A program made the translations under genes and the position numbers. Positions 13,875-32,002 of a stretch of DNA of 64,000 bases are shown in pieces. Source of the stretch: an uncultured Actinomycetota bacterium (GTDB lineage Bacteria > Actinomycetota > Thermoleophilia > Gaiellales > Gaiellaceae). The notes below the pieces were generated by a model that saw only the letters and a list, made by a program, of their open reading frames with translations, was not told where the DNA came from and did no database searches. Position 1 is the first letter of the stretch. Each line of letters starts with the position of its first letter. The stretch is from contig CAVREC010000002.1 of NCBI GenBank assembly GCA_963720045.1, positions 69,361 through 133,360 on the forward strand, written 5' to 3'.

Positions 13875-13888
13875 GAGTCAGCGAGCCA

Positions 13889-16952: not shown

Positions 16953-16970
16953 CTACCCCTTCCTGGTCTG

Positions 16971-18626
16971 TTAGCCGAGGCTGATCTGGGTGCCGGAGAT
17001 GGAGATCACGCCCATCGAGTTCATCGTGAACGAGGAGCTTCCGCACTTGATCTCGAGCTGGGTCGTGCCTTCGATCGAGATCGAGGTGCCGCCCTTGATC
17101 GTCACCGACTGGGCGCCGTCGAGCGTCATGTCCTGCTGGGGCTTCTGGTCGATCTTCCCCGTCGTCTCGAGGCTGAAGTCCTTGTCGGACTTGATCGTGA
17201 TCACGTCTTTCGCGTGCATCTGGATCTTCTGGTCGGATTGGAGCGAGAAGGAGCCGTCCTGGATCGCCAGATCCTGGCCGGGCTTGTTTTGCCCGTTCCA
17301 GACCGACCCGAGCACGTACGGGTGGTTGACGTCGTCGTGCTCGAAGCCGATCACGACCTCGTCGCCGACCTGCGGCATCATCATCAACCCCCGGGCGTTG
17401 CCGGCGTTCGGCCCCGTCACGCGTGCCCACCACCCCTCCGTATCCGCGCCGAGAGCCGGGTAGCTCACGCGCACCCGGCCCATGTTGTCGGGGTCGTTGT
17501 TGTTCGTGACGAGCCCGATCACGACGGAGTTGCCCCAGCCGCGCTTGCTCTTCGGGGTCATCAGGTCGACGAGGCTGCGCGCCGAGCGCCCCGAGGTGGA
17601 GAAGAGCGTCCGGTAGCCGTGCGAGCCCTGGAAGAGATGCGTGCAGGACGAAACGACGTACGTCCCGCCGAAGCTCGTGCCGATCCCGTCGATCTTCACC
17701 TTCGAGCCGGCCTTGATCGCCGGGTTGCCCTTGGCGACCCCTTCGGCCTCGAGATAGCCCGCTCCCATGTGCGAGGCGTACGCGCTCGAGAGGTCGGACG
17801 CCTCCTGCTGCGAGAGCACCGGCCGGTCGGCGACGACCATCGTTCCGCCGCTCAGCGCCGAGGCCGCCGCTGCGCGGGTGATCCCGATCGCGGAAGCCGG
17901 CTCCTGGATGCTGCTCGTCGACTCGAACGAGCTGTTCCCCTTGGGGTCGCGGGCTCGCACGGTGACCTGGTCGACCTGCTGGACGGCGGAGACGCGCGGC
18001 TTGAAGCTGATCAGGGTGTCGCCCCACTTGAGGCTGATGTCCTGCGTGCCCGCGGGCGGGCCGGCCTTGCGGAAGTAGAGCTTGTGGTCGATCACGAGCA
18101 CCTCGAAGTCGATCCGCCCGGCGAGCTTCCAGAGGAACTCCCAGTCGGTCTCGTTGTTCTGCTGGACGAAGTCGTAGGCGGAGCCGCTGCTGTCGATCTG
18201 ACCGATCTCGGTCCCGTTCCGGCCCGCGATCTTCTGGGCGATATCGGCCGCCGTCATGTTCTGGTACGTATCGGCGACCTTCGTCTGGTGGAGCAGGTGC
18301 GAGCCGTCGTAGGCCCTGAAGCCGAGCGTCGTGCCCTGGGCGAACTCGGGCTCGAGCGAGACGACCTTGCCCTTGAAGACGCTCGACAGCGAGGTTCCGT
18401 CGATGGCCGAGAGGAGCACCTCGATCTCGCTCCCGATCTGGATCGGGAACTTGTCGATCGTCGCGAGGCCCGGGTCGGTGAACCGCAGCAGGCACGCATC
18501 CGGCAGCCGCAGGTTCTCCTGGATCCGCGCCTCGACGAGCCGCTGCCCGACCTCGTCGTCGAGCTTCGTCCCGCTTACGCGCACCTCCGCTCCGGAGACG
18601 GCGCTCACGCCGGAACCTCGGTGCAT
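16971..18626 (-). CDS. VgrG-like spike (gpD + gp5 OB-fold; Afp8-like)
   Basis: gpD-like N-terminal half. gp5-like GLVTNNNDPDNMGRVRVSYPALG...GWWARV...MMPQVGDEVVIGFEHDDVNHPYVLGSVWN. Beta-helical C-terminus with no extension. An alternative GTG start at 18608 is possible. Confidence 0.9.
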   Translation of the reverse strand: MHRGSGVSAVSGAEVRVSGTKLDDEVGQRLVEARIQENLRLPDACLLRFTDPGLATIDKFPIQIGSEIEVLLSAIDGTSLSSVFKGKVVSLEPEFAQGTTLGFRAYDGSHLLHQTKVADTYQNMTAADIAQKIAGRNGTEIGQIDSSGSAYDFVQQNNETDWEFLWKLAGRIDFEVLVIDHKLYFRKAGPPAGTQDISLKWGDTLISFKPRVSAVQQVDQVTVRARDPKGNSSFESTSSIQEPASAIGITRAAAASALSGGTMVVADRPVLSQQEASDLSSAYASHMGAGYLEAEGVAKGNPAIKAGSKVKIDGIGTSFGGTYVVSSCTHLFQGSHGYRTLFSTSGRSARSLVDLMTPKSKRGWGNSVVIGLVTNNNDPDNMGRVRVSYPALGADTEGWWARVTGPNAGNARGLMMMPQVGDEVVIGFEHDDVNHPYVLGSVWNGQNKPGQDLAIQDGSFSLQSDQKIQMHAKDVITIKSDKDFSLETTGKIDQKPQQDMTLDGAQSVTIKGGTSISIEGTTQLEIKCGSSSFTMNSMGVISISGTQISLG

Positions 18627-18651
18627 GGCACCGTTGTTGTCTCGGAGCGGC

Positions 18652-19347
18652 TCATTCCTCGATCTTCGGGATCGAGAGGATAGAGCCGCGCTTCAGGTGC
18701 AGCGGGTCGTCGATCCCGTTCGCCTCGGCGATCGAACGCCAGCGGGTCGGGTCGCGGTAATGGAGAAACGCGATCGAGGCGAGGCTGTCGCCGTCCCGCA
18801 CCGTGTGCGAGCCGAGGCCGGGCTGGGATCGCGTCGTCGGGTTCTGTGGGGCCGCCGAGCCGTGTTGGCTCGACGGGTCCATCGCCCGCTCGGCCTGGAT
18901 CAGCGAGAGCTGAGCCTGCGCGCGCACGGGTGTGCCGTCCGCGCGGAAGAGCGTGTACTGAATGCTCAGGCTGTCGGCGACGGCCTTGAAGGAGACGACG
19001 CTGCCCCAGACGAAGGTGACCATCGGCGGCCGGCCACTGTTTCGGGCGGAGCCCGAGGCGAGCCCCGCCTGCACCTCCATCATGTTGAAGAGCTGCTGGG
19101 TCACCTGGGTGACGTCGAGGCTCTGGGAGTCGGTCGAGTCGAAGAGAAGCTGAAGCGTGAGCTTGCGGGGATGGCCGCCGCCGAACTGCGCGGGCGGAAG
19201 CGCCGTCCCGACGACCGGTTTGACCGTCCAGTCGTTCTGCTTGGCGATCGTGTAGTCCTTGGGGTTGAACCAGCAGTCGATCGGGTCGCCGCCGCCCTCG
19301 ATCTCGAGGCTCGCAAGTTCGAATCCGGTGAGGGGTGGTAGCGGCAT
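18652..19347 (-). CDS. LysM-domain tube-initiator/hub protein (Afp7 / P2 gpX-like)
   Basis: ATG at 19347 lies 2 nt after the upstream stop. C-terminal LysM HTVRDGDSLASIAFLHYRDPTRWRSIAEANGIDDPLHLKRGSILSIP. It sits between the tube-like and VgrG genes. Confidence 0.85.
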   Translation of the reverse strand: MPLPPLTGFELASLEIEGGGDPIDCWFNPKDYTIAKQNDWTVKPVVGTALPPAQFGGGHPRKLTLQLLFDSTDSQSLDVTQVTQQLFNMMEVQAGLASGSARNSGRPPMVTFVWGSVVSFKAVADSLSIQYTLFRADGTPVRAQAQLSLIQAERAMDPSSQHGSAAPQNPTTRSQPGLGSHTVRDGDSLASIAFLHYRDPTRWRSIAEANGIDDPLHLKRGSILSIPKIEE

Positions 19348-19349
19348 GG

Positions 19350-19829
19350 TCAGCTCGGGGGCATGAGGCCCTGGTGGGCGATCTCGAGGGTCTCGGTCGC
19401 GACATTCGTGGACCTGGCGCTGAACGACGGCCCCGACCACTTCACCGGGAACGCCGAGGCGAACGACCACGTGCGAACCTGCTGCCCGTCGTCGCCGAGC
19501 AGGTTGAGGGTGACGTTGCCGCGATCGTCGCGGTCTGAGTCCTGGTCGTAGAACCACTGGAGCAGCGCGTCCTCGTAGGTGATCCCGCGCTTGAGCACGA
19601 GGTTCGGATACTTGAGCGCACCGCGGAACTTGTGGACGTATCGCATCTCGCCTCCTTCCTGGTACTCGAAGATGTCGTACTCGACGCTGAGCCCGCTGCA
19701 CTCGGCGAACGCACCGATCACGGCGTCGTCGAGCAGCACCTGAAACCGGAGCTCGCCGACCGGGTCGGGCAGGCTCGCCGAGTCGCTCTCGGCGCTCGAA
19801 CGGTCGCTTGAATCGGTGTAGTCGGACAT
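19350..19829 (-). CDS. second tube-family protein (Afp5-like, T4 gp19 family)
   Basis: FQVLLDDAVIGAFAECSGLSVEYDIFEYQEGGE..YVHKFRGALKYPNLVLKRGI..WF is paralogous to the tube gene at 23126..23566. AAGGAGA RBS. Confidence 0.85.
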   Translation of the reverse strand: MSDYTDSSDRSSAESDSASLPDPVGELRFQVLLDDAVIGAFAECSGLSVEYDIFEYQEGGEMRYVHKFRGALKYPNLVLKRGITYEDALLQWFYDQDSDRDDRGNVTLNLLGDDGQQVRTWSFASAFPVKWSGPSFSARSTNVATETLEIAHQGLMPPS

Positions 19830-19844
19830 CGTCTCTCCTTGCTG

Positions 19845-22559
19845 CTACGGCAGGTCGCCGAGCAGGTCTCCCATCCGTTCGCGGTCTGCCAGGAGATCGC
19901 GGCGGAGCCGTTCGATCACCTGGGTGTAGATCTCCTCGATGTCCCCGCCACCCCCGCCGCCTCCTCCGCCCTGGGCGGGCGGCGGTGTGGGCGCCGGGGC
20001 GCCCTGGGATGCCGGCGCTTCGCTCGCCGCCGGCTGCGCTCCCGCAGCCGGCTCCGGGCCTGCAGCCCGCATCAGCGACATCGCGGGCGCGAACGCCATG
20101 CCCGCGGGCCGGGGGAAGACGACGGTCTCGTATCCCTCGTCGCCCTGCGAGATCGCGGCGCCGGTCGCTGCGGCGAGCCTCGCCCCGCTCGTAGGCGTCC
20201 GTCTGGAGCCGGGGCCTGCCGCGCCCCGCTGGAGCTGCTGCGGTGCTTCCGAGCGGGCGAGCGTCGCCGTCGCCGCGTGCGGCTCGTGCGCGGCGACCAG
20301 GCGAAGGGCGGGACGACCGCGGCGCGAGGCAACGGCGGAGCCGGAAGCGGCCGTCGCGGGTGCGGCCGAGCGGGCGAGCTGCGAGCCCGCCGCTCCGGTT
20401 CCCGTCGCGGCCGCGGCTTCGAGCGGCTCGGCCGCGAAGGCGGCTGCTGCCTGCGGGATCGGAGCTTCTTCGGCCGCGGGAACGAGCTCGCCGCGCTCGG
20501 CGACGGGGGCTCTGCCACGCGAGGCCCCGCGACGCCCGGCCGCACCGGGCTCGCCGGCGGCAGCCGACGCCGCGGCCTGCCCGACCGCCTGAACAACGAC
20601 CGGCGCCGGGTCGGCGGCGGGAATCCTGGCCGGGGAAGCCAGAGCCGGGGAAGCCGGTGCCTGGGAAGCGGGCGCGGTCTTCGGCGTCTCCGGTGCGGCA
20701 GAGCGGCTGAGCGCTCGGAACGGCCGCATGATCGCGCGGGCGACCGTGCTGCTTCCCGCTCCGACCTCTTCTTCTTCGGCGGGGGATCCGCTGACCGGCG
20801 AGGGCGTTGCCGCGGCGGAACGCGACGGAGTCGTGGCGGCCCCCTCTGCCGGAGCAGGCGGGCCGTCGGCGGCGGGCTCCGGCCCTTGTGCAGGAGGAGG
20901 CGTACCCCCGGCGGCGGGAGGGGGCTCGGGCGAGGACTCGTCGGTGACCGGCGCAGGTGTGCTCGGCGGCGATGCTTCCGGGCCCTGGCCGGGACCGGAT
21001 GCCGGGGCGGCTGCTTCGGAGGCGGTCGGCTCGACGAGCTCGAGCGGCACGGGCGTCGAGGCCGGCCCCGCGCTCTCGGGGCCCGCGGGCGCCGGCGGCT
21101 CCGTCCCTGACGACGGGCCTTCAGCGCTTTCCGCCTGCTCCCCTGCCGGAGCCTCGGCCTCGTTCGGGTACGGCACCGGAACCGGCCCGGCAGGCGGGGA
21201 CGGCGGCGTCTCGGGCCCTGTTGGCGACCCGCCTGGCGAGGCGGGCGGTGCCGGCGTCGGGGAGGGCCCGGCCTCGGACGGTGGGCCACTCGCGGGGGCG
21301 GAAGTTGTCGGCGCGGCGCCTGCCGGAGACTGCACGCTGTCTGCCCACGGGTCGCGGGAATCGCGTGCGAGCGCAGGGGTGAGCTGGGGCGTCGGCCGGG
21401 ACGTTGCCCCGACCGCCGTCGGGACGGCCGGGCCCGGCGTCACGGCCTCGGGCTCACGACGCAAGAGGGCATCGACGACGCGCTGCACGAGGCCACGCGC
21501 GGGCACCGCCTCGGCGGGAGCCGCAGGCGCGGGAGAAGGCGGCTCGTCGAGCTCAGCCTCGGGCTCGGCGGGCCGCCGGCGCACTTCGAGCGCTGGACGC
21601 TGCACGGCCTCGCGCGGTGCGGGTGCGAGGCTGAGCTTGGCGCGCGGCATCGGCGCGGCCGAAGCCGCCGGCGTTTCGGGCGGCGCAGCTCCTGACCCGG
21701 GAACGACGGGCGGTTCGGAGCTCAGCGGCTCCGGGATACCGGGTGCTTCCTGCGGCCCTCCACTTGGCGGCTCTCCACTGGGCTGCCCCGCACTGGGCTG
21801 CCCCGCACTGGGCTGCCCTGCACTGGGCGGCCCCGCACTGGGCGGCCCCGCACTGGGCGGCGCTCCAGCCACCGATTCTGGGCCCACCGACTGCGGGCTG
21901 CCTGACCTGGACGTCTCGGTCAGGGGCTCGACGGGTGCGGGAGCCCTGACCGCGGGCCGACGTGTCGAGAGGACGTTTCGCGGAGCCGGCGGAGTCGTGG
22001 TCGCCCGCGGCTCGACAGGCACCGGCGCGCTTTCGAGCTCGGCCGGAGCCTCCGGCTCCTCGGGCGGCGCCGGGGTTTCGGGAGCGGCGACCGGCGGAGC
22101 AGGCGACGGCCTGCGGGAGAGCTTGAACGACGTCACCTCCTCGACCCGTCCGCGCTGGACGGGCTGCGACCGCCGCTCGGTCTCGGCCTGGGCCGCCTGC
22201 GCCTCACGGGCGTCGCGCTGGTCGCGCTCGACGAGGAACGCCGGGCGCTCCCTGTCTACCGGCGCCATGTCCTTCAGTGCGGCCTCGCCCGCGATCGGGA
22301 TTCCCTCGGGTGGCCCGTCGCCGAAGAGCCACCGCGCTGCGAAGTCGCTCATCCCCGGCGGCCGCGGAATCGGAGCCTCTTCCACCCGTCCCGAGCGCGC
22401 GATCGAGCGGCCACGCGCCAGCCGCGTCGAGCTCTCGACGATCTTCTCCGGCGTCCGCGCCGCGACGACGCTCTGGGCCAGGCGCAGCCCGCCGACCCGC
22501 GGCGCGGAGGCATGCCGCGCGACGACCCGCCGTCCGAGCAGTCTGAGCCGGCCGGTCAT
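19845..22559 (-). CDS. tape-measure-slot protein, about 900 aa, mostly Pro/Ala/Ser/Gly low complexity
   Basis: It occupies the position between the chaperone-like ORFs and the distal tube/hub genes. The N-terminal roughly 130 aa and the C-terminal DIEEIYTQVIERLRRDLLADRERMGDLLGDLP look ordered; the middle is repetitive. ATG at 22559 lies 5 nt after the upstream stop. The functional call rests on synteny only. Confidence 0.55.
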   Translation of the reverse strand: MTGRLRLLGRRVVARHASAPRVGGLRLAQSVVAARTPEKIVESSTRLARGRSIARSGRVEEAPIPRPPGMSDFAARWLFGDGPPEGIPIAGEAALKDMAPVDRERPAFLVERDQRDAREAQAAQAETERRSQPVQRGRVEEVTSFKLSRRPSPAPPVAAPETPAPPEEPEAPAELESAPVPVEPRATTTPPAPRNVLSTRRPAVRAPAPVEPLTETSRSGSPQSVGPESVAGAPPSAGPPSAGPPSAGQPSAGQPSAGQPSGEPPSGGPQEAPGIPEPLSSEPPVVPGSGAAPPETPAASAAPMPRAKLSLAPAPREAVQRPALEVRRRPAEPEAELDEPPSPAPAAPAEAVPARGLVQRVVDALLRREPEAVTPGPAVPTAVGATSRPTPQLTPALARDSRDPWADSVQSPAGAAPTTSAPASGPPSEAGPSPTPAPPASPGGSPTGPETPPSPPAGPVPVPYPNEAEAPAGEQAESAEGPSSGTEPPAPAGPESAGPASTPVPLELVEPTASEAAAPASGPGQGPEASPPSTPAPVTDESSPEPPPAAGGTPPPAQGPEPAADGPPAPAEGAATTPSRSAAATPSPVSGSPAEEEEVGAGSSTVARAIMRPFRALSRSAAPETPKTAPASQAPASPALASPARIPAADPAPVVVQAVGQAAASAAAGEPGAAGRRGASRGRAPVAERGELVPAAEEAPIPQAAAAFAAEPLEAAAATGTGAAGSQLARSAAPATAASGSAVASRRGRPALRLVAAHEPHAATATLARSEAPQQLQRGAAGPGSRRTPTSGARLAAATGAAISQGDEGYETVVFPRPAGMAFAPAMSLMRAAGPEPAAGAQPAASEAPASQGAPAPTPPPAQGGGGGGGGGDIEEIYTQVIERLRRDLLADRERMGDLLGDLP
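21776..21860 (-). repeat. 15-bp coding tandem repeat (PSAGP/PSAGQ, about 5.5 copies)
   Basis: cactgggctgccccg recurs at 21776, 21791, 21806, 21821 and 21836, with a partial copy at 21851. Confidence 0.85.
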
Positions 22560-22564
22560 GTGCG

Positions 22565-22723
22565 CTAATAGCCCCCGACGCGGGCCGAGATCGCATCGGC
22601 CTCTTCGAGGAAGCGCCGGCGGTCGGGGTGTTCGAGGTCGAGGATCGTGTCGAGCGGCCAGTGGAAGTGATAGGCGAGCTCGGCCGCCTCCGCGATCAGC
22701 TCATGCGGAGACGGCCTGTTCAT
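22565..22723 (-). CDS. small 52-aa protein in the -1 frame relative to the preceding ORF (tail assembly chaperone E'-like position)
   Basis: MNRPSPHELIAEAAELAYHFHWPLDTILDLEHPDRRRFLEEADAISARVGGY. Its ATG overlaps the upstream stop as ATGA (22720..23). It is wedged between the tube side and the tape-measure slot. Confidence 0.5.
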   Translation of the reverse strand: MNRPSPHELIAEAAELAYHFHWPLDTILDLEHPDRRRFLEEADAISARVGGY

Positions 22724-23097
22724 TCCCCCAGGCGCCTGTCCTCGACCTCTGTCAGGTCCACTTCGAAGGACTGCGAGCAGGAAGGACACGTCACCGCCCC
22801 GACCGACTCGCCGTCGGTGTTCAGTCGCTCGTAGAGCCGTTGGAGGTGGTCGAAGTCGGCCGCGAAGAGGCCCTCGACAACGTCCGGCGTGACGTCCGAG
22901 ACGTCCCCGAGCTTCGTCACGACGCGCGACAGCAGGAGCACCGAGAGGTACGCCTCGTTCTGCCGGACCTCGACAGAACGGAGCGGCTCGATCTCGTCGC
23001 GCGCCGTGGCAAGGCGCATTGCGCCCTGACGATGGACGTTGCCTGCCGCGTCCACGTACCCCCGCGGCAGCGTGAACGGGAACTCTGTCTGCATCAA
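22720..23097 (-). CDS. small 125-aa CIS protein (tail assembly chaperone-like position) with a C-terminal CxxC
   Basis: MMQTEFPFTLPRGYVDAAGNVHRQGAMRLATARDEIEPLR...VTCPSCSQSFEVDL. It lies immediately downstream of the tube gene. The function is inferred from synteny with the phage G/GT or P2 E/E+E' genes. Confidence 0.6.
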   Translation of the reverse strand: MMQTEFPFTLPRGYVDAAGNVHRQGAMRLATARDEIEPLRSVEVRQNEAYLSVLLLSRVVTKLGDVSDVTPDVVEGLFAADFDHLQRLYERLNTDGESVGAVTCPSCSQSFEVDLTEVEDRRLGE

Positions 23098-23125
23098 GTG
23101 ACCTCCTCAACCCCCTCGTTGCTCG

Positions 23126-23566
23126 TTACTCCCTCGTGAACCCTTCGTGGCAGATGTGCAGTTCCTCGAGCGCGACGTTGTTCGTCGAGGCATCGAGGGT
23201 TGCGGCGACGTACTTGATCGCCCATCCCTGTTTGAACTGGTAGGTGGCGATCGTGCCGCCGTCGATGTCGAGCAGCTCGACCTTGCCGTCGACTCTCGCG
23301 GCGTCGGCGCCCTTGTTGATCACGTCGTCACGCCACTGCCAGATGTCCATGCTCTCGTCGACGCCGCGCTTGAGGACGATGTTCGCCCACTTGATCCCGC
23401 CCGCGACCTTGCGGGTGTAAGGGCGGCCGTTCGCGTCGATCGACTTGTGCTCGAGCACCTCGGTCTCGGAGTCGAATCCCGAGGCCTCCTTGAACACACC
23501 CACTGACTCCTTGCCGCCGAGCGTCAGGCGGAAGAATGACGCTGGGCGTGGCTCTCTGATCGGCAT
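23126..23566 (-). CDS. tail tube protein (Afp1-like, T4 gp19 family)
   Basis: FFRLTLGGKESVGVFKEASGFDSETEVLEHKSIDANG...KVAGGIKWANIVLKRGV. GGAGGAG RBS. Directly downstream of the sheath gene. Confidence 0.9.
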   Translation of the reverse strand: MPIREPRPASFFRLTLGGKESVGVFKEASGFDSETEVLEHKSIDANGRPYTRKVAGGIKWANIVLKRGVDESMDIWQWRDDVINKGADAARVDGKVELLDIDGGTIATYQFKQGWAIKYVAATLDASTNNVALEELHICHEGFTRE

Positions 23567-23588
23567 TTAGCTCCTCCTCTCTTTGTGT

Positions 23589-25136
23589 CTAGGCGATTTC
23601 GCTGACGCCCGCGGCGAACTGGCTGATCCGGAAGATCACGAACTCGGCCGGCTTCGTGGGGCAGATCCCGATCTCGACGACGACCTGGCCCGCCTCGATC
23701 ACGTCCTGGGGGTTGGTCTCTGCGTCGCACTTCACGTAGTAGGCGTCACTCGGCGAGGCGCCGAAGAGCGCACCCTGCCGCCACGTGCGGTTCAGGAAGT
23801 TCGCGGCCGAGATGCGCAGCGAGCTCCAGAGGCGCTCGTCGTTCGGCTCGAACACGGCCCACTGCGTCCCCTCCATGATCGACTCGGAGACGTAGTTGAA
23901 GAGCCGGCGGACGTTCACGTACCGCCACTCGGGATCGCTCGAGAGCGTGCGGGCGCCCCAGATGCGGATGCCGCGGCCGGGGAACGCCCGGATGCAGTTG
24001 ATCCCGCGCTGGTTCAGGCCGCCCTGCTCCTCGCCGGTGATCTGGAAGGCGACGCCGTTGACGCCGAGGGTCACTTCGTTCGCGGGCGCCTTGTGGACGC
24101 CCCGGGTTCCGTCGGTGCGCGCCCAGACGCCGGCGACATGGCCGGACGGCGGGACGAGCAGCGGGCGCTTGGAGATCGGATCCATGACCTCGAGCCACGG
24201 GTAGTAGAGCGTCGCGAACTTCGAGTCGTACCCCGCGGAGTTCATCCGCCAGTCGAGCGCGTCCTGCGGGTTCAGGTTCGGCGGCGGATCGAGGATCGCC
24301 ATCCGGTCGCCCATGTTCTCGCAGTGGGCGATCATCTTGCCCTGCAGGTCGCGGAAGCCCGTGTCGTCGCCGTTCCCGGCGAACGTCACGGCGTCGGGGA
24401 CGATCACCATCGTGACCTCGTCCACGGCCGCCAGGGCCCCCATGCCTTCGCGCTTGGCGACATCGCCCTCGAACTGCGTGGTGGTGATCGCGTCGCTCGA
24501 CTGCTTCGGCATCGAGAGCGTGAAGCTTCCGGTCGCGAGCGAGACGTCCGGGAGGCTCCCGCCCGTCTCCTCGAGCTTGATCAGCTTGGAGGTGGCGTTG
24601 ACCTTCGTGACGATGTAGGCGCGGCCCTTCTTGGCGCTGAGGCCGTCGAACTCCTCGGTAGCGCTTCCCGCGGTGACGACGAGCTTGTAGGTCGCCGGCG
24701 AGTCGTCGCCGTCGCCCCCGCCCGTTCCCTCGGTGGTCAGGTCGAGCTTGACGTCCGTGTCGACGCCCTTCTGGGCAACCGCGCGGAATGCCTCCGAGCT
24801 GCCGTCGCCCGCGGCCGGCAACGCGGCCTGGCGGACGCCGCCGTCGGAGCTTCCGACGCGGACGATCCAGCAGAGGCCGCCGCCGTTCTGGAACCAGCCG
24901 TAGACGCTGTGGGCGAGGTACGCGCCCTCCATGAACGGTCCGTTCTCCGGGTTCTGGGCGTCGCCGTAGATCGTCGCGAACTGTGTCCAGTTCGCAATCC
25001 GGGTCGGCCGGTTCACGGGCCCGCCGGGGGCCAGGCCGACGAACGCGGCGATCGACGTGCCCACCCCTTCGATCGGCTTGTTCGCCGAGGGAACCTCCTC
25101 GACGTACACGCCCGGGGTCAAATAACTTGTCGCCAT
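23589..25136 (-). CDS. contractile tail sheath protein (Afp2-like)
   Basis: Canonical N-terminus MATSYLTPGVYVEEVPSANKPIEGVGTSIAAFVGLAP and C-terminal sheath core (YYPWLEV.., GVHKAPANE.., INCIRAFPGRGIRIWGART). 515 aa. Confidence 0.95.
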   Translation of the reverse strand: MATSYLTPGVYVEEVPSANKPIEGVGTSIAAFVGLAPGGPVNRPTRIANWTQFATIYGDAQNPENGPFMEGAYLAHSVYGWFQNGGGLCWIVRVGSSDGGVRQAALPAAGDGSSEAFRAVAQKGVDTDVKLDLTTEGTGGGDGDDSPATYKLVVTAGSATEEFDGLSAKKGRAYIVTKVNATSKLIKLEETGGSLPDVSLATGSFTLSMPKQSSDAITTTQFEGDVAKREGMGALAAVDEVTMVIVPDAVTFAGNGDDTGFRDLQGKMIAHCENMGDRMAILDPPPNLNPQDALDWRMNSAGYDSKFATLYYPWLEVMDPISKRPLLVPPSGHVAGVWARTDGTRGVHKAPANEVTLGVNGVAFQITGEEQGGLNQRGINCIRAFPGRGIRIWGARTLSSDPEWRYVNVRRLFNYVSESIMEGTQWAVFEPNDERLWSSLRISAANFLNRTWRQGALFGASPSDAYYVKCDAETNPQDVIEAGQVVVEIGICPTKPAEFVIFRISQFAAGVSEIA

Positions 25137-25152
25137 CTCACTCCCTTCCTTC

Positions 25153-25506
25153 TTAGGTCGGTCGACCGGTATGGAGCTCCCGAATGAGTGCCTCGGAAGC
25201 GGAAGCTGGTATGCGTCTTGGTGAGGTGCTGCCGGGGTCGAACACCTGCATCTCCGCCTCGTCGCGCGGCCAGAGGATCAGCTTTGCCCCGGGTGCGGCA
25301 ATCCGGACGCGGTCGCCCAGGTCGGTCAAGCTGCTTCGCTCGAGGCCGAGGACGATCGCGTCGGGTTGAAGGGCCCGTGCCTGTTCGACGAAGGCGTCCG
25401 GAAGCTCGTCGTCGCCGACGACTTCGAGTCCTTCATCCTCGAGAACCCGTGTCATTCCGAGCCTGGCAACGGGCTCGAGGTTCCCGATCAGGGCCCGTCG
25501 AGACAT
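25153..25506 (-). CDS. stand-alone receiver-like (pseudo-receiver) domain protein
   Basis: ATG at 25506. There is an alternating beta/alpha pattern like CheY (ALIGNLEP / LEVVGD / DAIVLGLE / KLILW). The acidic pocket and phospho-acceptor Asp positions appear substituted (GNLEP, VLGLE). There is no output domain. Confidence 0.45.
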   Translation of the reverse strand: MSRRALIGNLEPVARLGMTRVLEDEGLEVVGDDELPDAFVEQARALQPDAIVLGLERSSLTDLGDRVRIAAPGAKLILWPRDEAEMQVFDPGSTSPRRIPASASEALIRELHTGRPT

Positions 25507-25689
25507 GGCGTGAACTGTGGTTTTTCCCGGCGCAGAGCGCCAGAGGCGCCGGTGCATCGAAGAGGGCAGCATTCGCGCCCCAATGGGGCAAGCGCCGGCG
25601 GTTCGTCAGCCGCTCGAAGAAGCTCCAACTCGATGAGCACGTTGCTGCCTGGACGCGCTGGGCACGCGCAGTCAGCGAGTGGGATTGAG

Positions 25690-26583
25690 TTAGGGCTTCG
25701 CGGCGGCGGCCTTCGCCGCGCCGCCGAGCACGAGCTCCGCGCCCTGGCCCGGAATCGCGAGGGAGGCCTTCGTCTCCTTGCCGTCGGGCCCGCGCGCAAC
25801 CACCGTGTATTTGCCGGAGTGGAGGCGATCGAAGCGGAAGCGGCCCTCGCCGTCGGTCACGGCGAGCTGCCCCGTCTCCTGGAGGAGAACCCACACGTTC
25901 CGGATCGCCTCACCGTTGCCGTTCACGACGGTGCCGCCGCTCCGGTGCATCTCGAGCAGCGTTGCGTTCCTGGCATCGCGGTCGAAGAGCCGGGTCGTCG
26001 CTGTCTTCACCTCGGGGCCGCGCTCGAGCGAGACGCCGGACTCGCAGGAAAGCGTCACCACGTAGTTGAAGGACGCCTTGTACTGGCCGCCGACCGCGCT
26101 CCAGAAGTCCGAGGCGTCCTCGTGGCGCTCCTGTGCGGTCGTCGTCTTCAGCGGGAAGCGCTGCGAGCCGTTCGCGAGCGAGGCCGCCAGCATCTCGGCC
26201 GGCAGGACCGGGAAGGCGTAGAAGATCGCCATCGTCTGCGAGAGCAGCCGGTGCTCGTCCTGCACGTCGCGCGTCCAGGCGGTCACCGCGTACGACGCAT
26301 CGATGCGGAGCGGGGGCCGTAGGTCGGTCGTGCGCCCTTCGCGAACCTGCTCCTGCCACTCGATCGGCCGAAGGTCCTTCGCCTCGCGGATGTCGTAGAG
26401 GAAGAGGTTCACCGCGGGGCTCGAGAGCGACGCCGCCCATTCCTTGTCGGGCGCGTCGAACTCGATCTCGACCCCGTCGAAGCCGTGGCGCTCGAGGTCA
26501 CGCTTGAGCAGGTTCTTCAGCGACTCGTCCAGGTCGGCGAGCATCGTGTTGATCGGAACCTGGATCTTCATCGGCAGCGCCAT
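25690..26583 (-). CDS. tail terminator/cap protein (DUF4255, Pvc16/Afp16-like) with C-terminal carboxypeptidase-regulatory-like beta-sandwich
   Basis: N-terminal INTMLADLDESLKNLLKRDL...PAVNLFLYDIRE is typical of DUF4255. C-terminal GTVVNGNGEAIRNVWVLLQETGQLAVTDGEGRFRFDRLHSGKYTVVA. Confidence 0.8.
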   Translation of the reverse strand: MALPMKIQVPINTMLADLDESLKNLLKRDLERHGFDGVEIEFDAPDKEWAASLSSPAVNLFLYDIREAKDLRPIEWQEQVREGRTTDLRPPLRIDASYAVTAWTRDVQDEHRLLSQTMAIFYAFPVLPAEMLAASLANGSQRFPLKTTTAQERHEDASDFWSAVGGQYKASFNYVVTLSCESGVSLERGPEVKTATTRLFDRDARNATLLEMHRSGGTVVNGNGEAIRNVWVLLQETGQLAVTDGEGRFRFDRLHSGKYTVVARGPDGKETKASLAIPGQGAELVLGGAAKAAAAKP

Positions 26584-26657
26584 GCAAGGAGTCTGTCAGA
26601 TCGGTGAGGAACCGATAGGGGCGGGTGGGGTAGCGCTTCGTGACCGAAAGGGCAGGT

Positions 26658-26682
26658 GATCGGGCATCGAGAATGCCCGATC
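26658..26682. promoter_or_regulatory. perfect 10-bp inverted repeat in the divergent intergenic region
   Basis: GATCGGGCAT-cgaga-ATGCCCGATC read directly. It lies between the cap gene start (26583, -) and the + strand gene starting at 26780/26786. Confidence 0.35.
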
Positions 26683-26779
26683 CGTCTCCCCGCCGAGCCT
26701 CATTTCGGCCCGCTCGGTTCCGAGGTCTCAACCGGGAACGCCCGCAGAGCGCCGAGGCCCTAGCGGTATCATCGGGTTC

Positions 26780-27628
26780 GTGGCCATGTACGCAGAGCGC
26801 GAGCGTCGGCCCCCTCGTTCGCGCGAGTCGAAGGGCCTCGGCCGCGCGACGCGCGACGAGCTCGAGCACCCGATGCTCGCCCTCCAGCACTCGATCGGGA
26901 ATCGCGCCGTGGCCGGTCTCGCGCGGTCGCTCCTTCTGCGTCAGCCTGACGGCCACGCCGCGCCGCAGGAGCTCCACGACGTGCCGATCGGCCAGCCGCC
27001 CCCGACGCAGGTCCCTGCGGCCGACCTCGCGTCCGCCGGGGGATCGCCGCCGGCCACCGTGACCTACACGGGGCCACCCGCCGCGGCTGCAACGACGGCT
27101 CCGACCACGCCCGCCGCTCCGTCGACGGCGCAGGCGCCGGCCCCCGATCCGGCTCAGGCTCCGGCGCAGACACCGGCGGCGACGCCGGCACCGACCGGCG
27201 ACACGAGCACCCCGCACAGCGACTGGACGCTGACGCGCGACCCGTTCAACGTCACGCTCACCTACACGATCGCCGACCTGCACCTCTGGCGCTCGCGCTC
27301 GCGCCTGCTCGACATCGACTTCCTCGCCGACCCGTCGGCCAGCATCTCGGTCGGCCTCGACGAGCCGCACGCAGCCGCCGGCGGCGCCGCGGTCAACCTC
27401 TTCCTCGTCCACGTGAAGCAGAACGGCGACAGCTTCCTCGATCTCGGCGTCGGCCCCTCGGTCGGCTTCGACGGCTCGTCAGCCACCGTCAGCGGCCAGG
27501 GCACGGCGGAGCTGCACCTCGACGCGACGACGTCGCTGACCTTCACCGCGACCTTCACGCCGACTCCGGGCCCGGATGGGCTCGGGCTGAACTCGACCGA
27601 GGTGCTCGGGTTCATGAAGCACTTCTAG
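26780..27628 (+). CDS. candidate CIS-associated cargo: DUF4157-type N-terminal leader motif, Pro/Ala/Thr linker, unknown beta-rich C-terminal domain
   Basis: LALQHSIGNRAVAGLARSLL resembles the leader motif preceding DUF4157 domains (compare LASTMGNQAFSTLARQ in 30751..31284). It has no HExxH. The C-terminal roughly 130 aa is unassigned. Possible starts: GTG 26780, ATG 26786, ATG 26873. Confidence 0.6.
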   Translation: MAMYAERERRPPRSRESKGLGRATRDELEHPMLALQHSIGNRAVAGLARSLLLRQPDGHAAPQELHDVPIGQPPPTQVPAADLASAGGSPPATVTYTGPPAAAATTAPTTPAAPSTAQAPAPDPAQAPAQTPAATPAPTGDTSTPHSDWTLTRDPFNVTLTYTIADLHLWRSRSRLLDIDFLADPSASISVGLDEPHAAAGGAAVNLFLVHVKQNGDSFLDLGVGPSVGFDGSSATVSGQGTAELHLDATTSLTFTATFTPTPGPDGLGLNSTEVLGFMKHF

Positions 27629-28155
27629 CTCGCCGTTTCGCCTCGTGCCTCGCGCAACGCGCGGATGTCGATCAGATCTTGGTTTCGCCCGGCGATGTTC
27701 TTGAAGTCGATGAGGTCATCGAAACCTACGAACGCGACGTCGCCGAACGGGTAGTGGGCAACGGCCGCGCGTTCCCTGAGCTCCGCGAAGTCTTCGGGCG
27801 TTTCCAACTTGCCCGCCACATACTGGAGAACGTCGAGCCGCCCGAACCTCGTTGCTAGATCCCAGTTCCCGTGATCGAGCAGGCTGTCGAGGCTCAACGG
27901 CGCAGCCAGTTCCTTCTCCTTGAACGCGCCCAGGGCAAGAGGCCGTGCCTCGAGTTCCTCGAGCGCCTTCCAGAGGCGGCTCAGGCTCTCGCGGTCGGGC
28001 GCAGGGATGATGTCGACGTCCTTCGTTGTCCGCGTGAACCCGTGATGGCTCACGGCGACACCGCCCATGACGAGAAAGTCCGTCCGATGTCGAGTCAGGA
28101 GATCCAGGATCTCGTCGATTTGAGGGATCGGGACCGAACTGCCGATGTGATTCAT
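27625..28155 (-). CDS. nucleotidyltransferase-fold protein (AbiEii/MNT-like, possible toxin-antitoxin component)
   Basis: DFLVMGGVAVSHHGFTRTTKDVDII matches the GG...D.D nucleotidyltransferase pattern. ATG at 28155 overlaps the upstream stop (ATGA). G+C is locally lower. Confidence 0.5.
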   Translation of the reverse strand: MNHIGSSVPIPQIDEILDLLTRHRTDFLVMGGVAVSHHGFTRTTKDVDIIPAPDRESLSRLWKALEELEARPLALGAFKEKELAAPLSLDSLLDHGNWDLATRFGRLDVLQYVAGKLETPEDFAELRERAAVAHYPFGDVAFVGFDDLIDFKNIAGRNQDLIDIRALREARGETAS

Positions 28156-28676
28156 GACCCCGCCGCCAGTCTGTTCAGCGAACGATGGAGGGCTGCCAGC
28201 TGAAGCACACGCTCCTCGGGGGTCGTCCGCTCGTACTCGTAGCGGAGCTCGTCGTAGCTCTGATTGGGGCGGGGAAGAGCGGCGAGTTCGGAGCTGTAGA
28301 CCAGACGTCCCCCGCGGTCGGGCCACCTGAGCTCCTGGAAAGCCCGCGCTAGAAGGCCGCGCTTCACGCCCTCGCGCTTCAGTGTTTCGACCTGCACCGC
28401 AAGGTCGAGCAGCGCGCCGGTTTCGACGGCGAGCCGGGATGAGTGCGGGTAGGCAACCGCCGGTAGCCGCCCGCGATCGACCCAGCGGTCAAGGGCGGTG
28501 ACGCTGACACCCAGGAGTTGGCCGGCCAGGCCCTTCTGAATGCCCGCTGGAAGTTCGCGACGTAGACCGACCTCGATTTGCCGCAGTTCCTCGCGGAGCT
28601 CCGCGTCGCGTGTCTGCCGGATCGCCAAACGCAGTCGGACGACGGCATCAAGAATCGAGGGGACGGGCGAGGCCAT
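28152..28676 (-). CDS. helix-turn-helix DNA-binding protein, putative partner of the nucleotidyltransferase
   Basis: GLAGQLLGVSVTALDRWVDRGRLPAV is HTH-like. It is translationally coupled to the downstream gene. Confidence 0.5.
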   Translation of the reverse strand: MASPVPSILDAVVRLRLAIRQTRDAELREELRQIEVGLRRELPAGIQKGLAGQLLGVSVTALDRWVDRGRLPAVAYPHSSRLAVETGALLDLAVQVETLKREGVKRGLLARAFQELRWPDRGGRLVYSSELAALPRPNQSYDELRYEYERTTPEERVLQLAALHRSLNRLAAGS

Positions 28677-28748
28677 GCCCAGATCCTAGCCCAAGTTTGT
28701 CTTACGGCCTTATGTTGACCAACTTAGAGGATCGTGGTCCCCGCAGAA

Positions 28749-30803
28749 CTAGGGAACCGCCGGGAACGCGCCCGTTGTCGGCTTGATCACTTCGAGGAAG
28801 TGCTCGAAGTCGGCCTCGATAGTGAGGCGGCCGAGCTTGTTGTACTCGAGGGCGACCGCGCGGACGAGATGCTCCATTCCGATCGGGGTGCCGGCGTCGG
28901 CGGCCATGAACGCGCCTGAGAGGGAGCAGTTGCGGATGCTCCCACCCGAGAGCCGGAAGCGTTTGGCGAGGAAGTGGAGGTCGATGTCGTCGGCCTGCGG
29001 TGCCTCCGTCGGGAGGACGAGCTTCCAGATCCGCTCGCGGTCCTCGGGCTCGGGGAACGGGAAGTCGACGACGACGTCGAGACGGCGCAGGAAGGCGTCG
29101 TCCATGTTCTGGCGGAAGTTCGTGGCGAGGATCACGGCGCCGGGGTAGCCCTCCATCTTCTGGAGCAGGTAGGCGACCTCGATGTTCGCGTAGCGGTCGT
29201 GCGCGTCGCGAACCTCGGAGCGCTTGCCGAAGAGCGCGTCGGCCTCGTCGAAGAAGAGGATCGCGTTCGAGCCTTCCGCGGCGCCGAAGACGCGGTCGAG
29301 GTTCTTCTCGGTCTCCCCGATGTACTTGGAGACGACCGTCGCGAGGTCGAGGCGGAAGAGGTCGAGGCCGAGGTCGCGCGCAAGGACCTGGCCCGCCATC
29401 GTCTTCCCGGTTCCCGACTCGCCGGCGAAGAGCACCTTGATCCCCTGGGTGCGCGCGACGGTCTTCTCGTAGCCCCATTCGGAGAGCACGAGGTCGCGAT
29501 GGCGTAGGTAGGCCGAGATCGAATGGAGCACCTCGAGTTGGCGCTCGGCGATCACGAGGTCGCCCCAGCCGAACGGCGAGTCGAGGCGGGTGGCGAGCTC
29601 GGCGAGGCGGGTGCTCGAGGCGCGGCGGGCGCCGAGGTCGAGGTCGGCGCGGACCGGCACGGTCTCGCCGCGGGTGCCGGCGGAGAGTCGCGCGACGGCG
29701 GCGGCGTCGTTGATCTGGCCGATCGAGAGCCGGAACTTCGCGGCGACATCGTCGATCTCGTCGCTGCCGGTCGCGCTGACCCAGGCCCGACGGCGCTCCG
29801 CGAAGCTCGGCTGCGAGGCCTCGACGACGATCGCCGTGGCCTCGCCGAGCGTCACGACGGCCTGCGCGGAGGCGGCGACGATGAGGACTCCTTCGCCGCG
29901 GGCGGCGAAGGCGCGCTGCACGCGGAGGTGCTTGTCGGGCTCGAGGTCGTCGAGGCCGTCGAAGCAGAGCTGGCGGCCTTCGAGCAGCGCGGTGACGGTG
30001 GCGTCGCGCATCAGCTCGGCATCTCCGGCATCGACCGCGTCGACGAGGAGCAGCGGCCGGCCGACCGTGGCCGCGAGGAGCGCCTCGGCGTCGGGGCCTA
30101 CGAGAAGAATCGGCAGGCGGGTCGAGGCGTCGAGCAGCGGGCGGAGCTCGGCGATCGTCGCGGCCCGGCCTGGGTCGTAATCGGGAAGAGGCACCGGACG
30201 GAGCCGTCCGTCGCGCGCCGGTTCGTCGAGCCCGCTCGCGAGCAGGTGCGCTGCCAGCCGGTCGGAGACCTTCAGCAGCCGGTCGGCGACCGGGAGCTGG
30301 CTTCCGGACTCGAGCAGCCGGACTGCGCCGGTGCGGCGAAGCGGCGCCTCGTGATCGAAGCAGTCGAGCGCCTGCGCCGCCGAGAACCCCGAATCGGCCA
30401 GGAGCCGGGCCACGAGCCGCGGGCTCGCGAGCTTCCGCGTCACGTCGTCGTGCAGGTAGGCGAAGAGACGGCCGTAATGCGGGCCCAGCTCGGGTGCGGC
30501 GCAGAGGGCCATCGCTGCCGCCTCGGCGTCGCTCAGTCCGAGGAGGTGGGCGGCGCGGGCGATCCGGTCATCGAGATCCTGGCCCGGGCCCTCGCGCGAG
30601 AGCTCGACGGCGAGCTCGTCGGAGATATAGAGGCCGCGAAACGGGTCAGCCGGGTTCGGATCGGTGGCCGCGACCGCCTCGACGGCGGAGCGGATCCGGC
30701 CGTCGAGTGCGTCGAAGGTATGGAGCGCAGTGTTGAGCTCGGGGACCGGGTCAGCCGACGAGGTCACCGGCCGCTGCCTCCGCCTCGTTCTCGAGCGCAT
30801 CAC
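28749..30803 (-). CDS. CIS AAA+ ATPase (Afp15-like)
   Basis: C-terminal AAA module GIKVLFAGESGTGKTMAGQVLA (Walker A), AILFFDEADALF (Walker B) and ILATNFRQNMDDAFLRRLD. Large N-terminal domain. The start is uncertain (GTG 30767 is possible). Confidence 0.9.
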   Translation of the reverse strand: MMRSRTRRRQRPVTSSADPVPELNTALHTFDALDGRIRSAVEAVAATDPNPADPFRGLYISDELAVELSREGPGQDLDDRIARAAHLLGLSDAEAAAMALCAAPELGPHYGRLFAYLHDDVTRKLASPRLVARLLADSGFSAAQALDCFDHEAPLRRTGAVRLLESGSQLPVADRLLKVSDRLAAHLLASGLDEPARDGRLRPVPLPDYDPGRAATIAELRPLLDASTRLPILLVGPDAEALLAATVGRPLLLVDAVDAGDAELMRDATVTALLEGRQLCFDGLDDLEPDKHLRVQRAFAARGEGVLIVAASAQAVVTLGEATAIVVEASQPSFAERRRAWVSATGSDEIDDVAAKFRLSIGQINDAAAVARLSAGTRGETVPVRADLDLGARRASSTRLAELATRLDSPFGWGDLVIAERQLEVLHSISAYLRHRDLVLSEWGYEKTVARTQGIKVLFAGESGTGKTMAGQVLARDLGLDLFRLDLATVVSKYIGETEKNLDRVFGAAEGSNAILFFDEADALFGKRSEVRDAHDRYANIEVAYLLQKMEGYPGAVILATNFRQNMDDAFLRRLDVVVDFPFPEPEDRERIWKLVLPTEAPQADDIDLHFLAKRFRLSGGSIRNCSLSGAFMAADAGTPIGMEHLVRAVALEYNKLGRLTIEADFEHFLEVIKPTTGAFPAVP

Positions 30804-31284
30804 CCGGCTCGGAGACCTGGAGCGGGCCGCTCGTCGCCGCGCCGCGCTGCTGGACGACGTGCGTCAGCTCGTGCGCGAGCAGTTGCTGGCCCTCGCTCGA
30901 GCCCGGGTTGTGCTCGCCCTTGGCGAAGTAGACGTCGCTGCCGGTGGTGAAGGCGCGGGCGGAGACCGACTGCGCGAGCGACGCGGCGTGGTCGTCGGTG
31001 TGCACGCGGACGTCGTGCAGCGAGTCGCCGAGTCCGCCGCCGATCTGCTCGCGCGAGCTGTCGTCGAGCTTCTGGCCGCTGCCGCGCGTCTGTGCGATCG
31101 CCGACTCGACGTCGGGATGAGCGCGGCCGTCGGGCAGGATCCCGGCGCCCTGGCGGGCAAGTGTCGAGAAGGCCTGGTTGCCCATCGTCGAGGCGAGGCG
31201 CTGAGCCTCGGGGATGTCGGGAGTCTGCGCAGCGGGGCGCTTTGCGCCCTGCGACTGCTCGAGCTCTCGTTCGTAGCTCGACAT
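30751..31284 (-). CDS. DUF4157 (eCIS-associated, HExxH metallopeptidase-like) domain protein
   Basis: LASTMGNQAFSTLARQ...DVRVHTDDHAASLAQSVSARAFTTGSDVYFAKGEHNP...LLAHELTHVVQQ. ATG at 31284 shares one nt with the upstream stop. Confidence 0.85.
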   Translation of the reverse strand: MSSYERELEQSQGAKRPAAQTPDIPEAQRLASTMGNQAFSTLARQGAGILPDGRAHPDVESAIAQTRGSGQKLDDSSREQIGGGLGDSLHDVRVHTDDHAASLAQSVSARAFTTGSDVYFAKGEHNPGSSEGQQLLAHELTHVVQQRGAATSGPLQVSEPGDALENEAEAAAGDLVG

Positions 31285-31967
31285 CAGGTAACGCGCACGT
31301 CCTGGCGCTTGGCGATCTTGCCGTTCACGACCAGCGTCGCATACCAGGTGCCCTTCGGAAGGGCCTTGGTCGACTTCAGGAACGAGTAGACCGTCGTCGC
31401 GTACGGCTTGGTCACCGCGCCGAGGTAGGTGAAGCTCGGCGTGCGCCACTCGATCTTCACGGTCTTCGCGCCCGGCGGTGGGACGAGGAAGTGGAACCGC
31501 GCCCAGAGGATGTGAGTGCTGCTCGGGACGGACCTCGTGGCCTTCCCGTTCTGCGTGGAGCTGACGACCCCGTTGTCGACGACGCCCTCGGAGGGGGTCG
31601 GCACCGTGAACTTCGCCGTCGCGCTACCGACCTTCAGGACGTAGTCCCGTGGCGGGAGCCGCGCGGGGAGCTTGATCGTCTCGGCGGCAGCGCCGGACTT
31701 GGTGAACGAGTACTGCTTGACCGCCGCCACCGGGCCGGGCACGACCGGGCGGACCGAAGCCTGGACGCTCGCCGGGCCGCTGACCGTGATCGTGAAGTGG
31801 AGGTTCCCCGTGAGCCAGCCCTGATTCCAGACCGCGCTGACGTGGACATTCGAGAGTCCCACCGATGCGGCAGGTGTCGCCGACGCCGTCGCCGGGAGCA
31901 GCAGCACGGCGATCACGAAGATCACCCCGGCAAGCCGTGCGCCCTTTGGCGCGTGCCCGCGTTTCAT
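31284..31967 (-). CDS. secreted protein of unknown function, first gene of the ATPase sub-operon
   Basis: MKRGHAPKGARLAGVIFVIAVLLLPATASA is signal-peptide-like. The mature part is beta-rich. Alternative starts at 31976 and 32003 (TTG). Confidence 0.55.
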   Translation of the reverse strand: MKRGHAPKGARLAGVIFVIAVLLLPATASATPAASVGLSNVHVSAVWNQGWLTGNLHFTITVSGPASVQASVRPVVPGPVAAVKQYSFTKSGAAAETIKLPARLPPRDYVLKVGSATAKFTVPTPSEGVVDNGVVSSTQNGKATRSVPSSTHILWARFHFLVPPPGAKTVKIEWRTPSFTYLGAVTKPYATTVYSFLKSTKALPKGTWYATLVVNGKIAKRQDVRVT

Positions 31968-31973
31968 GTGCCC

Positions 31974-31994
31974 CATCGTACGTGCCGTACGATG
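31974..31994. promoter_or_regulatory. 21-bp perfect palindrome between divergent start codons
   Basis: CATCGTACG-tgc-CGTACGATG read directly. It lies between ATG 31967 (-) and ATG 32003 (+). Confidence 0.35.
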
Positions 31995-32002
31995 CGCGCG
32001 CA

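Follow-up and report, generated by a model that had tools for sequence, protein, structure and literature searches.

The 64,000-nucleotide stretch analysed here (the window; positions 69,361 to 133,360 of contig CAVREC010000002.1, assembly GCA_963720045.1, from an uncultured actinomycetotal bacterium of the Gaiellaceae) contains, by family annotation, a complete extracellular contractile injection system (eCIS) locus on the minus strand (13889..31449). Within it, the interval from the cap gene to the AAA+ ATPase gene contains a gene on the plus strand (26780..27628). Here it is proposed, as the favoured reading and with moderate confidence, that the product of this gene is an accessory eCIS cargo loaded through a short N-terminal leader. 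The word effector is used in a putative sense, from protein architecture and genomic context only, and loading into the particle and injection are likewise predicted. An eCIS cargo with an N-terminal loading sequence is an already known kind of element; the protein family and its beta-barrel superfamily appear to be undescribed, as does the leader motif, for which literature searches with motif strings found no describing paper. The original prediction of a possible novel effector, made from the sequence and consisting of a DUF4157-type leader motif and an unassigned beta-rich domain, was supported as a putative eCIS cargo: the motif similarity to DUF4157 proteins is significant in a profile comparison, the C-terminal domain matches no housekeeping family and the protein family occurs beside contractile injection system (CIS) genes in other genomes.

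Candidate gene and domain organization

The open reading frame (ORF) at 26780..27628 is a real gene. Its GC content at the first, second and third codon positions (0.71, 0.58 and 0.91) has the same profile as the sheath, cap and ATPase genes, in a window of about 70% GC whose real genes have a third-position GC (GC3) near 0.9. Long spurious ORFs are frequent at 70% GC and six overlapping ORFs lie within the same interval, which would favour a chance reading frame in GC-rich DNA; however, the GC3 of 0.91, with periodicity in the correct frame, contrasts with 0.68 in the long antisense ORF, and the search of 5.8 billion proteins retrieved 22 relatives at 37-100% identity (all hypothetical proteins, one labelled Gaiellaceae), with conserved motifs and with indels restricted to the linker in the family alignment. 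Together with the confident AlphaFold2 (AF2) model of the beta domain, these observations were judged to refute the chance origin already, leaving it a negligible probability. Two antisense ORFs were rejected as genes: 26498..27412, with a GC3 of just 0.68, and 27262..27615, which is nested inside the plus-strand gene that has homologue support and whose high GC3 (0.96) arises because its third positions mirror those of the plus frame. The GTG start at 26780 agrees with the homologue N-termini MA[RM][YH]A.ERERR, and an alternative ATG start at 26786 would give a 280-aa form. As had been predicted for the locus, this is its only plus-strand gene with GC3 support, over the interval from 6547 to 31449. 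The gene and the segments of its product are as follows, with mean pairwise identities within the family.

26780..27628, plus strand: candidate gene, 282 aa plus stop, GTG start at 26780
26780..26866, plus strand: N-terminal charged hydrophilic tail (aa 1-29), always Arg/Glu-rich; 29% identity
26867..26944, plus strand: leader motif (aa 30-55) HPMLALQHSIGNRAVAGLARSLLLRQ, predicted helix 31-52; 70% identity
26978..27073, plus strand: family-specific block DVPIGQPPP...PPxTVTYTG (aa 67-98); 61% identity
27074..27199, plus strand: Pro/Ala/Thr disordered linker of variable length (aa 99-140); 44% identity
27200..27625, plus strand: all-beta C-terminal domain (aa 141-282); 68% identity

The tail is modelled with a predicted local distance difference test score (pLDDT) of about 40, and the pLDDT is below 50 over residues 1-76. 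With a mean Kyte-Doolittle (KD) hydropathy of -1.16 over the first 35 aa, a net charge of +3 (aa 6-21) and Tyr4, this disordered, hydrophilic and positive N-terminus fits the published features of eCIS loading sequences (PMC11297309; 10.64898/2026.05.27.728243). Neither a Sec signal nor a transmembrane segment was found in the protein, the maximum 19-aa KD window being 0.86. The leader is the best-conserved segment, with the consensus HPxLxLQ[RH]xxGNRAVxxL..LLLR and nearly invariant G40, N41, R42 and A43, followed by a block with invariant G71, P73, P91 and G98. Disorder of the linker (pLDDT below 50 at residues 93-131) and the modelled strands behind it confirmed the predicted arrangement of a Pro/Ala/Thr linker and a beta-rich C-terminal domain. 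The protein has no Pfam match at E <= 0.01, no eCIS_core match and, as first noted, no HExxH core; on these sequence criteria it is outside the DUF4157/eCIS_core family (PF13699) and shares with it just the motif upstream of that domain. Searches of Pfam, NCBIfam and PHROGs with the whole protein and with the beta domain gave no match.

Distribution of the family in eCIS loci

The comparison included the window, the loci of six looked-up homologues and 55 more loci from a genome scan with the ATPase, which came from Gaiellaceae, Solirubrobacteraceae, Miltoncostaeaceae and one Acidimicrobiales genome. The six looked-up homologues are all encoded on the opposite strand, in the interval that separates the Pvc16_N cap gene of an eCIS from its AAA ATPase gene. 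A hidden Markov model (HMM) of the beta domain found the family in 7 of the 55 scan loci, each time abutting the cap gene (the contigs of L001 and L004 recur among these seven as L012 and L015). In 14 of 14 loci, the family is within the eCIS cap-ATPase slot and is transcribed divergently from the cap gene, so that the association with CIS genes holds in other genomes. The slot is between 4 bp and 9.5 kb long, and the close relatives L010, L014 and L043, whose ATPases are 82-90% identical, lack the family, as do all Solirubrobacteraceae loci of the scan; given these absences and the variable slot, the gene is therefore accessory rather than core structural.

The main rival explanation, a non-toxic accessory or assembly component, draws on the regular position by the cap gene and on the missing immunity gene. 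Such a protein would serve in docking, as a plug or anchor, or as a chaperone-like partner of the cap, ATPase or DUF4157 protein, and would not be injected; the shared motif would bind the same hub. The constant position and divergent orientation beside the cap gene are in agreement with it, and so are the lack of an immunity partner, the occurrence of the motif on the small, near-universal DUF4157 protein, regarded as an adaptor and not as a toxin (PMC13277306), and the conserved divergent intergenic region, which suggests co-regulation with the structural operon. However, the absence from L010, L014, L043 and the Solirubrobacteraceae indicates that the gene is dispensable for the machine, the beta domain is found in other lineages behind DUF4157, the position where toxins sit (PMC8213781), and an orphan fragment and modular shuffling are typical of effectors. 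Taken together, the assembly role is considered fairly unlikely.

The orphan fragment is in L003, the most divergent locus (8553-15187), which has a 7.4-kb slot with a candidate homologue. The slot also encodes a 483-aa upstream gene overlapping that homologue by 4 nt, a leader-bearing DUF5995 protein and a leader-bearing YkzU-domain protein. The orphan itself, at 12764-13072 of L003, is 102 aa long and duplicates the C-terminal half of the beta domain, as in polymorphic-toxin loci, and the slot looks like a cargo island with a decaying duplicate.

Leader motif shared with DUF4157 proteins

The motif that was first noticed in two proteins of the locus is present in both, as LALQHSIGNRAVAGLARSLL at aa 33-52 of the candidate and as LASTMGNQAFSTLARQ in the minus-strand gene 30751..31284, whose product is the full DUF4157 protein that it had been taken for. 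BLASTP of the two N-termini gave 12/28 identities with E = 0.003, as a single comparison. A 24-aa profile, seeded with LQ-type leaders, was iterated over 62 sequences of about 1.2 Mb with 11,948 ORFs. It matched 6 DUF4157 proteins at iteration 0 and the DUF4157 protein of the window at iteration 2 (E = 1.2e-5), and after three rounds it matched 82 of the 11,948 ORFs, namely 49 DUF4157 proteins just upstream of the ATPase, 13 members of the candidate family and 20 others. All 82 adjoin the ATPase gene, with none elsewhere in the same sequences, and the reversed-sequence control gave 0 matches in every round. By these profile comparisons, the leader link between the candidate and the DUF4157 proteins is real and best seen through intermediates, and it was demonstrated in Thermoleophilia and Acidimicrobiia loci only.

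The HMM built from the leader of the candidate family gave no match to the DUF4157 proteins of the window or of its closest loci, and it matched one DUF4157 protein, that of the Acidimicrobiales locus L057 (E = 1e-3, 62 sequences), where Pfam places eCIS_core directly behind an LQ-type leader. The same HMM matched the L003 YkzU protein (E = 2e-6) and proteins in L002 (6e-4) and L045 (7e-4), as well as non-homologous slot proteins in L006, L030 and L042. The leader was also read by eye on the L003 DUF5995 protein and on proteins of 534 aa (L005), 504 aa (L006), 1081 aa (L014) and 404 aa (L016); the leader-bearing proteins of L005, L006, L014, L016, L038, L039, L042 and L045 have no assigned family. 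In L026 (11932-13854, E = 1e-19) and L030 (11539-13596, E = 4e-21), Pfam assigns Het-C domains behind the leader. Both Het-C genes come directly after the ATPase gene in Solirubrobacterales eCIS loci, and their products are likely phospholipase-type effectors. One N-terminal leader is in this way joined to unrelated C-terminal modules, including the beta-barrel, Het-C, DUF5995, YkzU and eCIS_core. A 44-aa leader profile retrieved just 5 short fragments from the 5.8-billion-protein set. According to the literature, which characterises the loading signal by physicochemical features only, eCIS signal peptides have shown no conserved sequence (PMC11297309), and the N-terminal domains (NTDs) of eCIS cargos are described as system-specific and disordered (10.64898/2026.05.27.728243).

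The slot also gathers clearly unrelated genes, such as the nucleotidyltransferase/helix-turn-helix (HTH) pair of the window and the methyltransferase and membrane protein genes of L022, L024 and L034, and some beta-domain relatives are away from any CIS genes. Both observations would suit a hitchhiker, immunity or regulatory gene in an insertion hotspot, unrelated to the machine, with a motif that is lineage-specific and has no loading role. This explanation is improbable, since every leader match in about 1.2 Mb of flanks is beside the ATPase, the leader is conserved above all other parts of the protein, the beta domain is repeatedly fused to eCIS_core, and no DNA-binding or known immunity domain was found in the candidate.

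C-terminal beta domain

Modelled alone with AF2, the beta domain has a pLDDT of 84.5 and a predicted TM-score (pTM) of 0.73. It consists of 9-11 strands at residues 146-280 (nine long ones in the domain-only model) in an up-and-down meander. Foldseek was used with this domain-only model, the full-length run being uninformative because half of the candidate model is disordered. There was no match in the PDB at E <= 1e-3, and the matches obtained were to outer-membrane protein (OMP)-like and avidin fold classes only. The best PDB match was the designed transmembrane beta-barrel 6x9z (E = 5e-3, TM-score 0.44/0.51), followed by OmpW, AlkL, OmpX, NspA and the OmpA transmembrane domain (OmpA-TM), with avidins at a TM-score of about 0.5. 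The best BFVD match was to an uncharacterised protein of a Tenacibaculum phage (E = 2e-4, TM-score 0.47), and many phage "outer membrane protein beta-barrel" proteins were among the further ones. In the model, the likeness to 8-stranded outer-membrane barrels and avidins is at the level of fold class and is no evidence of homology.

PDB sequence-profile searches gave nothing credible, and no Pfam or PDB sequence match was found for the candidate or for 22 beta-domain superfamily members. The domain thus remained unassignable, as it had been from the sequence, with no housekeeping family in Pfam, NCBIfam, PHROGs or PDB sequences. An exhaustive profile search, which covered 1.84 billion cluster representatives, yielded 36 proteins. 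Among the distant ones, the domain stands behind an LQ-type leader in P0026-29, P0031, P0037, P0040, P0046 and P0053, behind eCIS_core and OmpA in P0030, P0036, P0038 and P0049, and behind eCIS_core only in P0050; many have an additional C-terminal extension of about 150 aa. In the superfamily alignment, H211 and E244 are invariant and D180, P185, H246, S252 and G277 near-invariant. The C-terminus of the candidate, ...GxxxHF, resembles the OMP beta-signal. In the predicted strands (sequence and DSSP of the model), the polar faces are rich in Gly, Thr, Ser and Asp and have no Lys or Arg, and the opposite faces carry Leu, Val, Phe and Ile.

Several distant relatives are also near contractile systems. 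L063 is itself an eCIS locus, encoding CIS_TMP, a Peptidase_S74 fibre and a second eCIS_core besides the relative, and the relatives in L066 and L067 adjoin sheath and tube genes. In L069 (759-9029), the relative P0043 is at 4-7 kb from the T6SS (type VI secretion system) genes VipA, VipB and ImpA_N, amid Y1 transposases, and the beta domain may also travel with T6SS. A metagenome scan for the superfamily yielded just 3 short contigs, with no CIS genes visible on them. The Parabacteroides cargo BDI_2459 has a periplasm-dependent activity (PMC12210884); with no sequence of it available, it could not be linked to the beta domain.

Proposed function of the candidate

In the proposed model, the first ~60 residues, a disordered Arg/Glu-rich tail followed by the helix LxLQ[RH]xxGNRAVxxL, would be the loading sequence and would direct the protein to the particle, most likely via the adjacent AAA+ ATPase and/or the small DUF4157 adaptor. 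The Pro/Ala/Thr linker would let the protein thread into the tube, and the C-terminal beta-barrel of ~140 aa, from a rare domain family recurring near contractile injection systems, would be the functional payload, acting on the envelope of the target cell and possibly as a membrane-inserting barrel. The combination of leader, linker and swappable module, the ATPase slot, the accessory distribution, the L003 orphan and the occurrence of the domain behind DUF4157 match the known pattern of eCIS cargo. For an activity directed at the envelope or membrane, the strand faces, the OMP-like matches, the GxxxHF end and the OmpA fusions are hints; a soluble avidin-like barrel would be equally compatible with the modelled fold.

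Several points weigh against this proposal. The case is entirely computational, with cargo loading and toxicity as predictions, and the N-terminal physicochemical features of the candidate occur in other ORFs of the high-GC window. The fold matches are weak (TM-score 0.44-0.53) and do not separate a membrane barrel from a soluble avidin-like one. There is no conserved adjacent immunity gene, most loci having the candidate alone between cap and ATPase, and no CIS genes were found near some distant relatives (L068, L071). The position and orientation beside the cap gene, constant in every locus, are more orderly than is typical of variable cargo and could mean an assembly or structural role.

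A further, joint reading takes the conserved leader as a sequence-defined loading signal and the payload as an OMP-like barrel that inserts itself or acts on the barrel-assembly machinery of the target; both parts together are considered unlikely. If true, the AAA+ ATPase or the DUF4157 adaptor of actinobacterial eCIS would recognise the helix LxLQ[RH]xxGNxA[VF]xxL, and this would contradict the view that eCIS signals have no conserved sequence. The barrel would be unfolded in the tube and then self-insert into the target membrane or, alternatively, its GxxxHF end would hijack or jam the barrel-assembly machinery of the target, making it a new class of membrane-active effector. No immunity protein would then be needed, because the producer, from its actinobacterial affiliation, is probably without an outer membrane.

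Cargo selection by eCIS is an open question, and these systems are being engineered as protein-delivery devices. In the lineage studied here, the motif marks every DUF4157 adaptor together with otherwise unrelated ATPase-adjacent proteins, in more than 50 loci. The leader motif is the most useful by-product of the analysis, as it makes cargo recognition in this lineage directly testable: it offers a simple rule for cargo prediction, a minimal loading tag and a defined peptide for mapping the binding site on the ATPase or adaptor. The beta-barrel adds an uncharacterised payload family, which recurs in DUF4157, OmpA, eCIS and possibly T6SS contexts, and its activity is worth testing since no enzyme-like relative is known.

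Host locus in the window

The eCIS of the window includes Tail_P2_I, gp25, a VgrG-like spike, two gp19 tube proteins and a sheath, in addition to the Pvc16_N cap, the AAA ATPase and the DUF4157 protein. The features around the candidate gene are as follows.

25690..26583, minus strand: eCIS cap/tail terminator gene, Pvc16_N plus CarboxypepD_reg, divergent from the candidate
26584..26779, no strand: divergent intergenic region between the candidate and the cap-sheath operon, with an inverted repeat, a -10-like element and conserved blocks
27625..28676, minus strand: two overlapping low-GC3 ORFs (0.72 and 0.75, against ~0.91 in the neighbours), between the candidate and the ATPase
28749..30803, minus strand: eCIS AAA+ ATPase gene, WHD plus AAA
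30751..31284, minus strand: small DUF4157 protein, PF13699 eCIS_core, E = 5.5e-29

The candidate was predicted to sit between the cap gene and a toxin-antitoxin-like insertion, and this placement holds, with Pvc16_N on one side and a DUF6036 and HTH pair on the other. The ATPase (28749..30803) is of the Pvc15/Alg15 type and a candidate cargo loader (10.64898/2026.05.27.728243; PMC11495950). The DUF4157 protein has a diverged leader, PEAQRLASTMGNQAFSTLARQG, at nt 31141-31206, and its gene is separated from the candidate by the ATPase gene and the two-gene insertion; in related loci without the insertion, the ATPase gene alone lies between them. The insertion encodes a weak DUF6036 nucleotidyltransferase match (E = 6.8e-5, just under the Pfam cut-off) and a weak HTH_17 match. 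It is missing from the closest loci (L007-L009), where the candidate abuts the ATPase gene. The pair looks like a recent toxin-antitoxin-like or defence-like insertion and is unrelated to the candidate.

In the divergent intergenic region, GATCGGGCAT/ATGCCCGATC form a perfect inverted repeat of 10 bp (26658-26682). A different palindrome (GGGGCAAC...GTTGCCCC) stands there in related loci, which have conserved intergenic blocks in common, for example GAGTCTCTCAGATCGA and GGTCGGGTAGG. A scan for consensus promoters and terminators gave no match. A -10-like TATCAT/TATGAT is present ~10 nt ahead of the start codon, and this spacing suggests that the mRNA of the candidate may be leaderless.

The distal end of the eCIS (6547-13874, minus strand) encodes three large proteins related to the cell envelope: one of 986 aa with three PASTA domains and a TolB/PD40-like propeller, one of 583 aa with an FHA domain and an M50/daptide-type intramembrane HExxH protease, and one of 912 aa with NlpC/P60. 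They may have fibre/receptor-binding, anchoring, lysis or effector functions. The gene at the other end (31284-32003, minus strand) stops exactly at the start of the DUF4157 gene; its product, of 239 aa, has a hydrophobic segment at the N-terminus and no match in Pfam. Unannotated proteins of ~228 aa are at the same position in L004, L005 and L006, and the window protein is apparently a conserved, uncharacterised component of this operon. Between sheath and cap, a 139-aa ORF (25153-25572, minus strand) has faint response-regulator-like NCBIfam matches (E about 0.06-0.1), and unannotated genes of 116-124 aa are at this position in L001, L003 and L005. A local GC peak of 0.78, against ~0.70, at 20001-22000 falls within the 904-aa ORF 19845-22559, whose location between the tube genes makes it a probable tape-measure protein; in L001, L003 and L005, the corresponding position is taken by unannotated genes of 741-903 aa.

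Comparison with known systems

The closest described arrangements are those of other eCIS cargos. Like the candidate, Cgo1 and Cgo2 of AlgoCIS (Algoriphagus machipongonensis) are encoded in an eCIS and have a disordered N-terminal loading sequence and a variable C-terminal payload. Their loading requires the AAA+ ATPase of the locus, Alg15, and needs the NTD, and the NTDs of both cargos are alike (10.64898/2026.05.27.728243). However, Cgo1 and Cgo2 carry DUF4157 in cis, which the candidate does not, and the published NTDs are described as not conserved, whereas the leader of the candidate is sharply conserved over more than 50 loci and several families. The predicted beta-barrel payload is also unlike those of Cgo1 and Cgo2, and the candidate is known from genes alone. 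The SLP system of Streptomyces lividans is, like the candidate locus, an actinobacterial CIS with a DUF4157-less cargo (Sle1) and a small stand-alone DUF4157 protein (Sle2), which binds the N-terminal region of Sle1 and the spike/tube-initiator complex (PMC13277306). The coiled-coil, tape-measure-like Sle1, which has a transmembrane hairpin, contrasts with the short leader and beta-barrel of the candidate; the gene positions differ, and the motif common to the candidate and its DUF4157 protein has no reported counterpart in Sle1 and Sle2.

The payloads of the Photorhabdus virulence cassette (PVC) and antifeeding prophage (Afp) systems, such as Pdp1, Pnf and Afp18, resemble the candidate in being without DUF4157 and in having a hydrophilic, positive and disordered N-terminus. 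Pdp1 starts with MPRYANYQ and the candidate homologue P0006 with MPRYARERR, both with an aromatic residue near the start, and loading of the PVC/Afp payloads depends on the Pvc15 ATPase (PMC11297309, PMC11495950). Unlike the candidate, these payloads are from Gammaproteobacteria and are known enzyme toxins with no conserved motif reported. As an N-terminal module placed on effectors with unrelated toxin domains and predictive of cargo, the leader is comparable to MIX, FIX and RIX of T6SS (PMC10435454); however, these are folded domains of about 100 aa or more, and the leader is a motif of ~25 aa in eCIS with no sequence relationship to them. As modelled, and at the level of fold class, the beta domain shares the up-and-down antiparallel barrel with long strands with OmpW, OmpX, OmpA-TM, AlkL, NspA, the phage OMP_b-brl proteins and avidins, and differs from the OMPs in having no sequence or profile match to them, no signal peptide and an actinobacterial producer.

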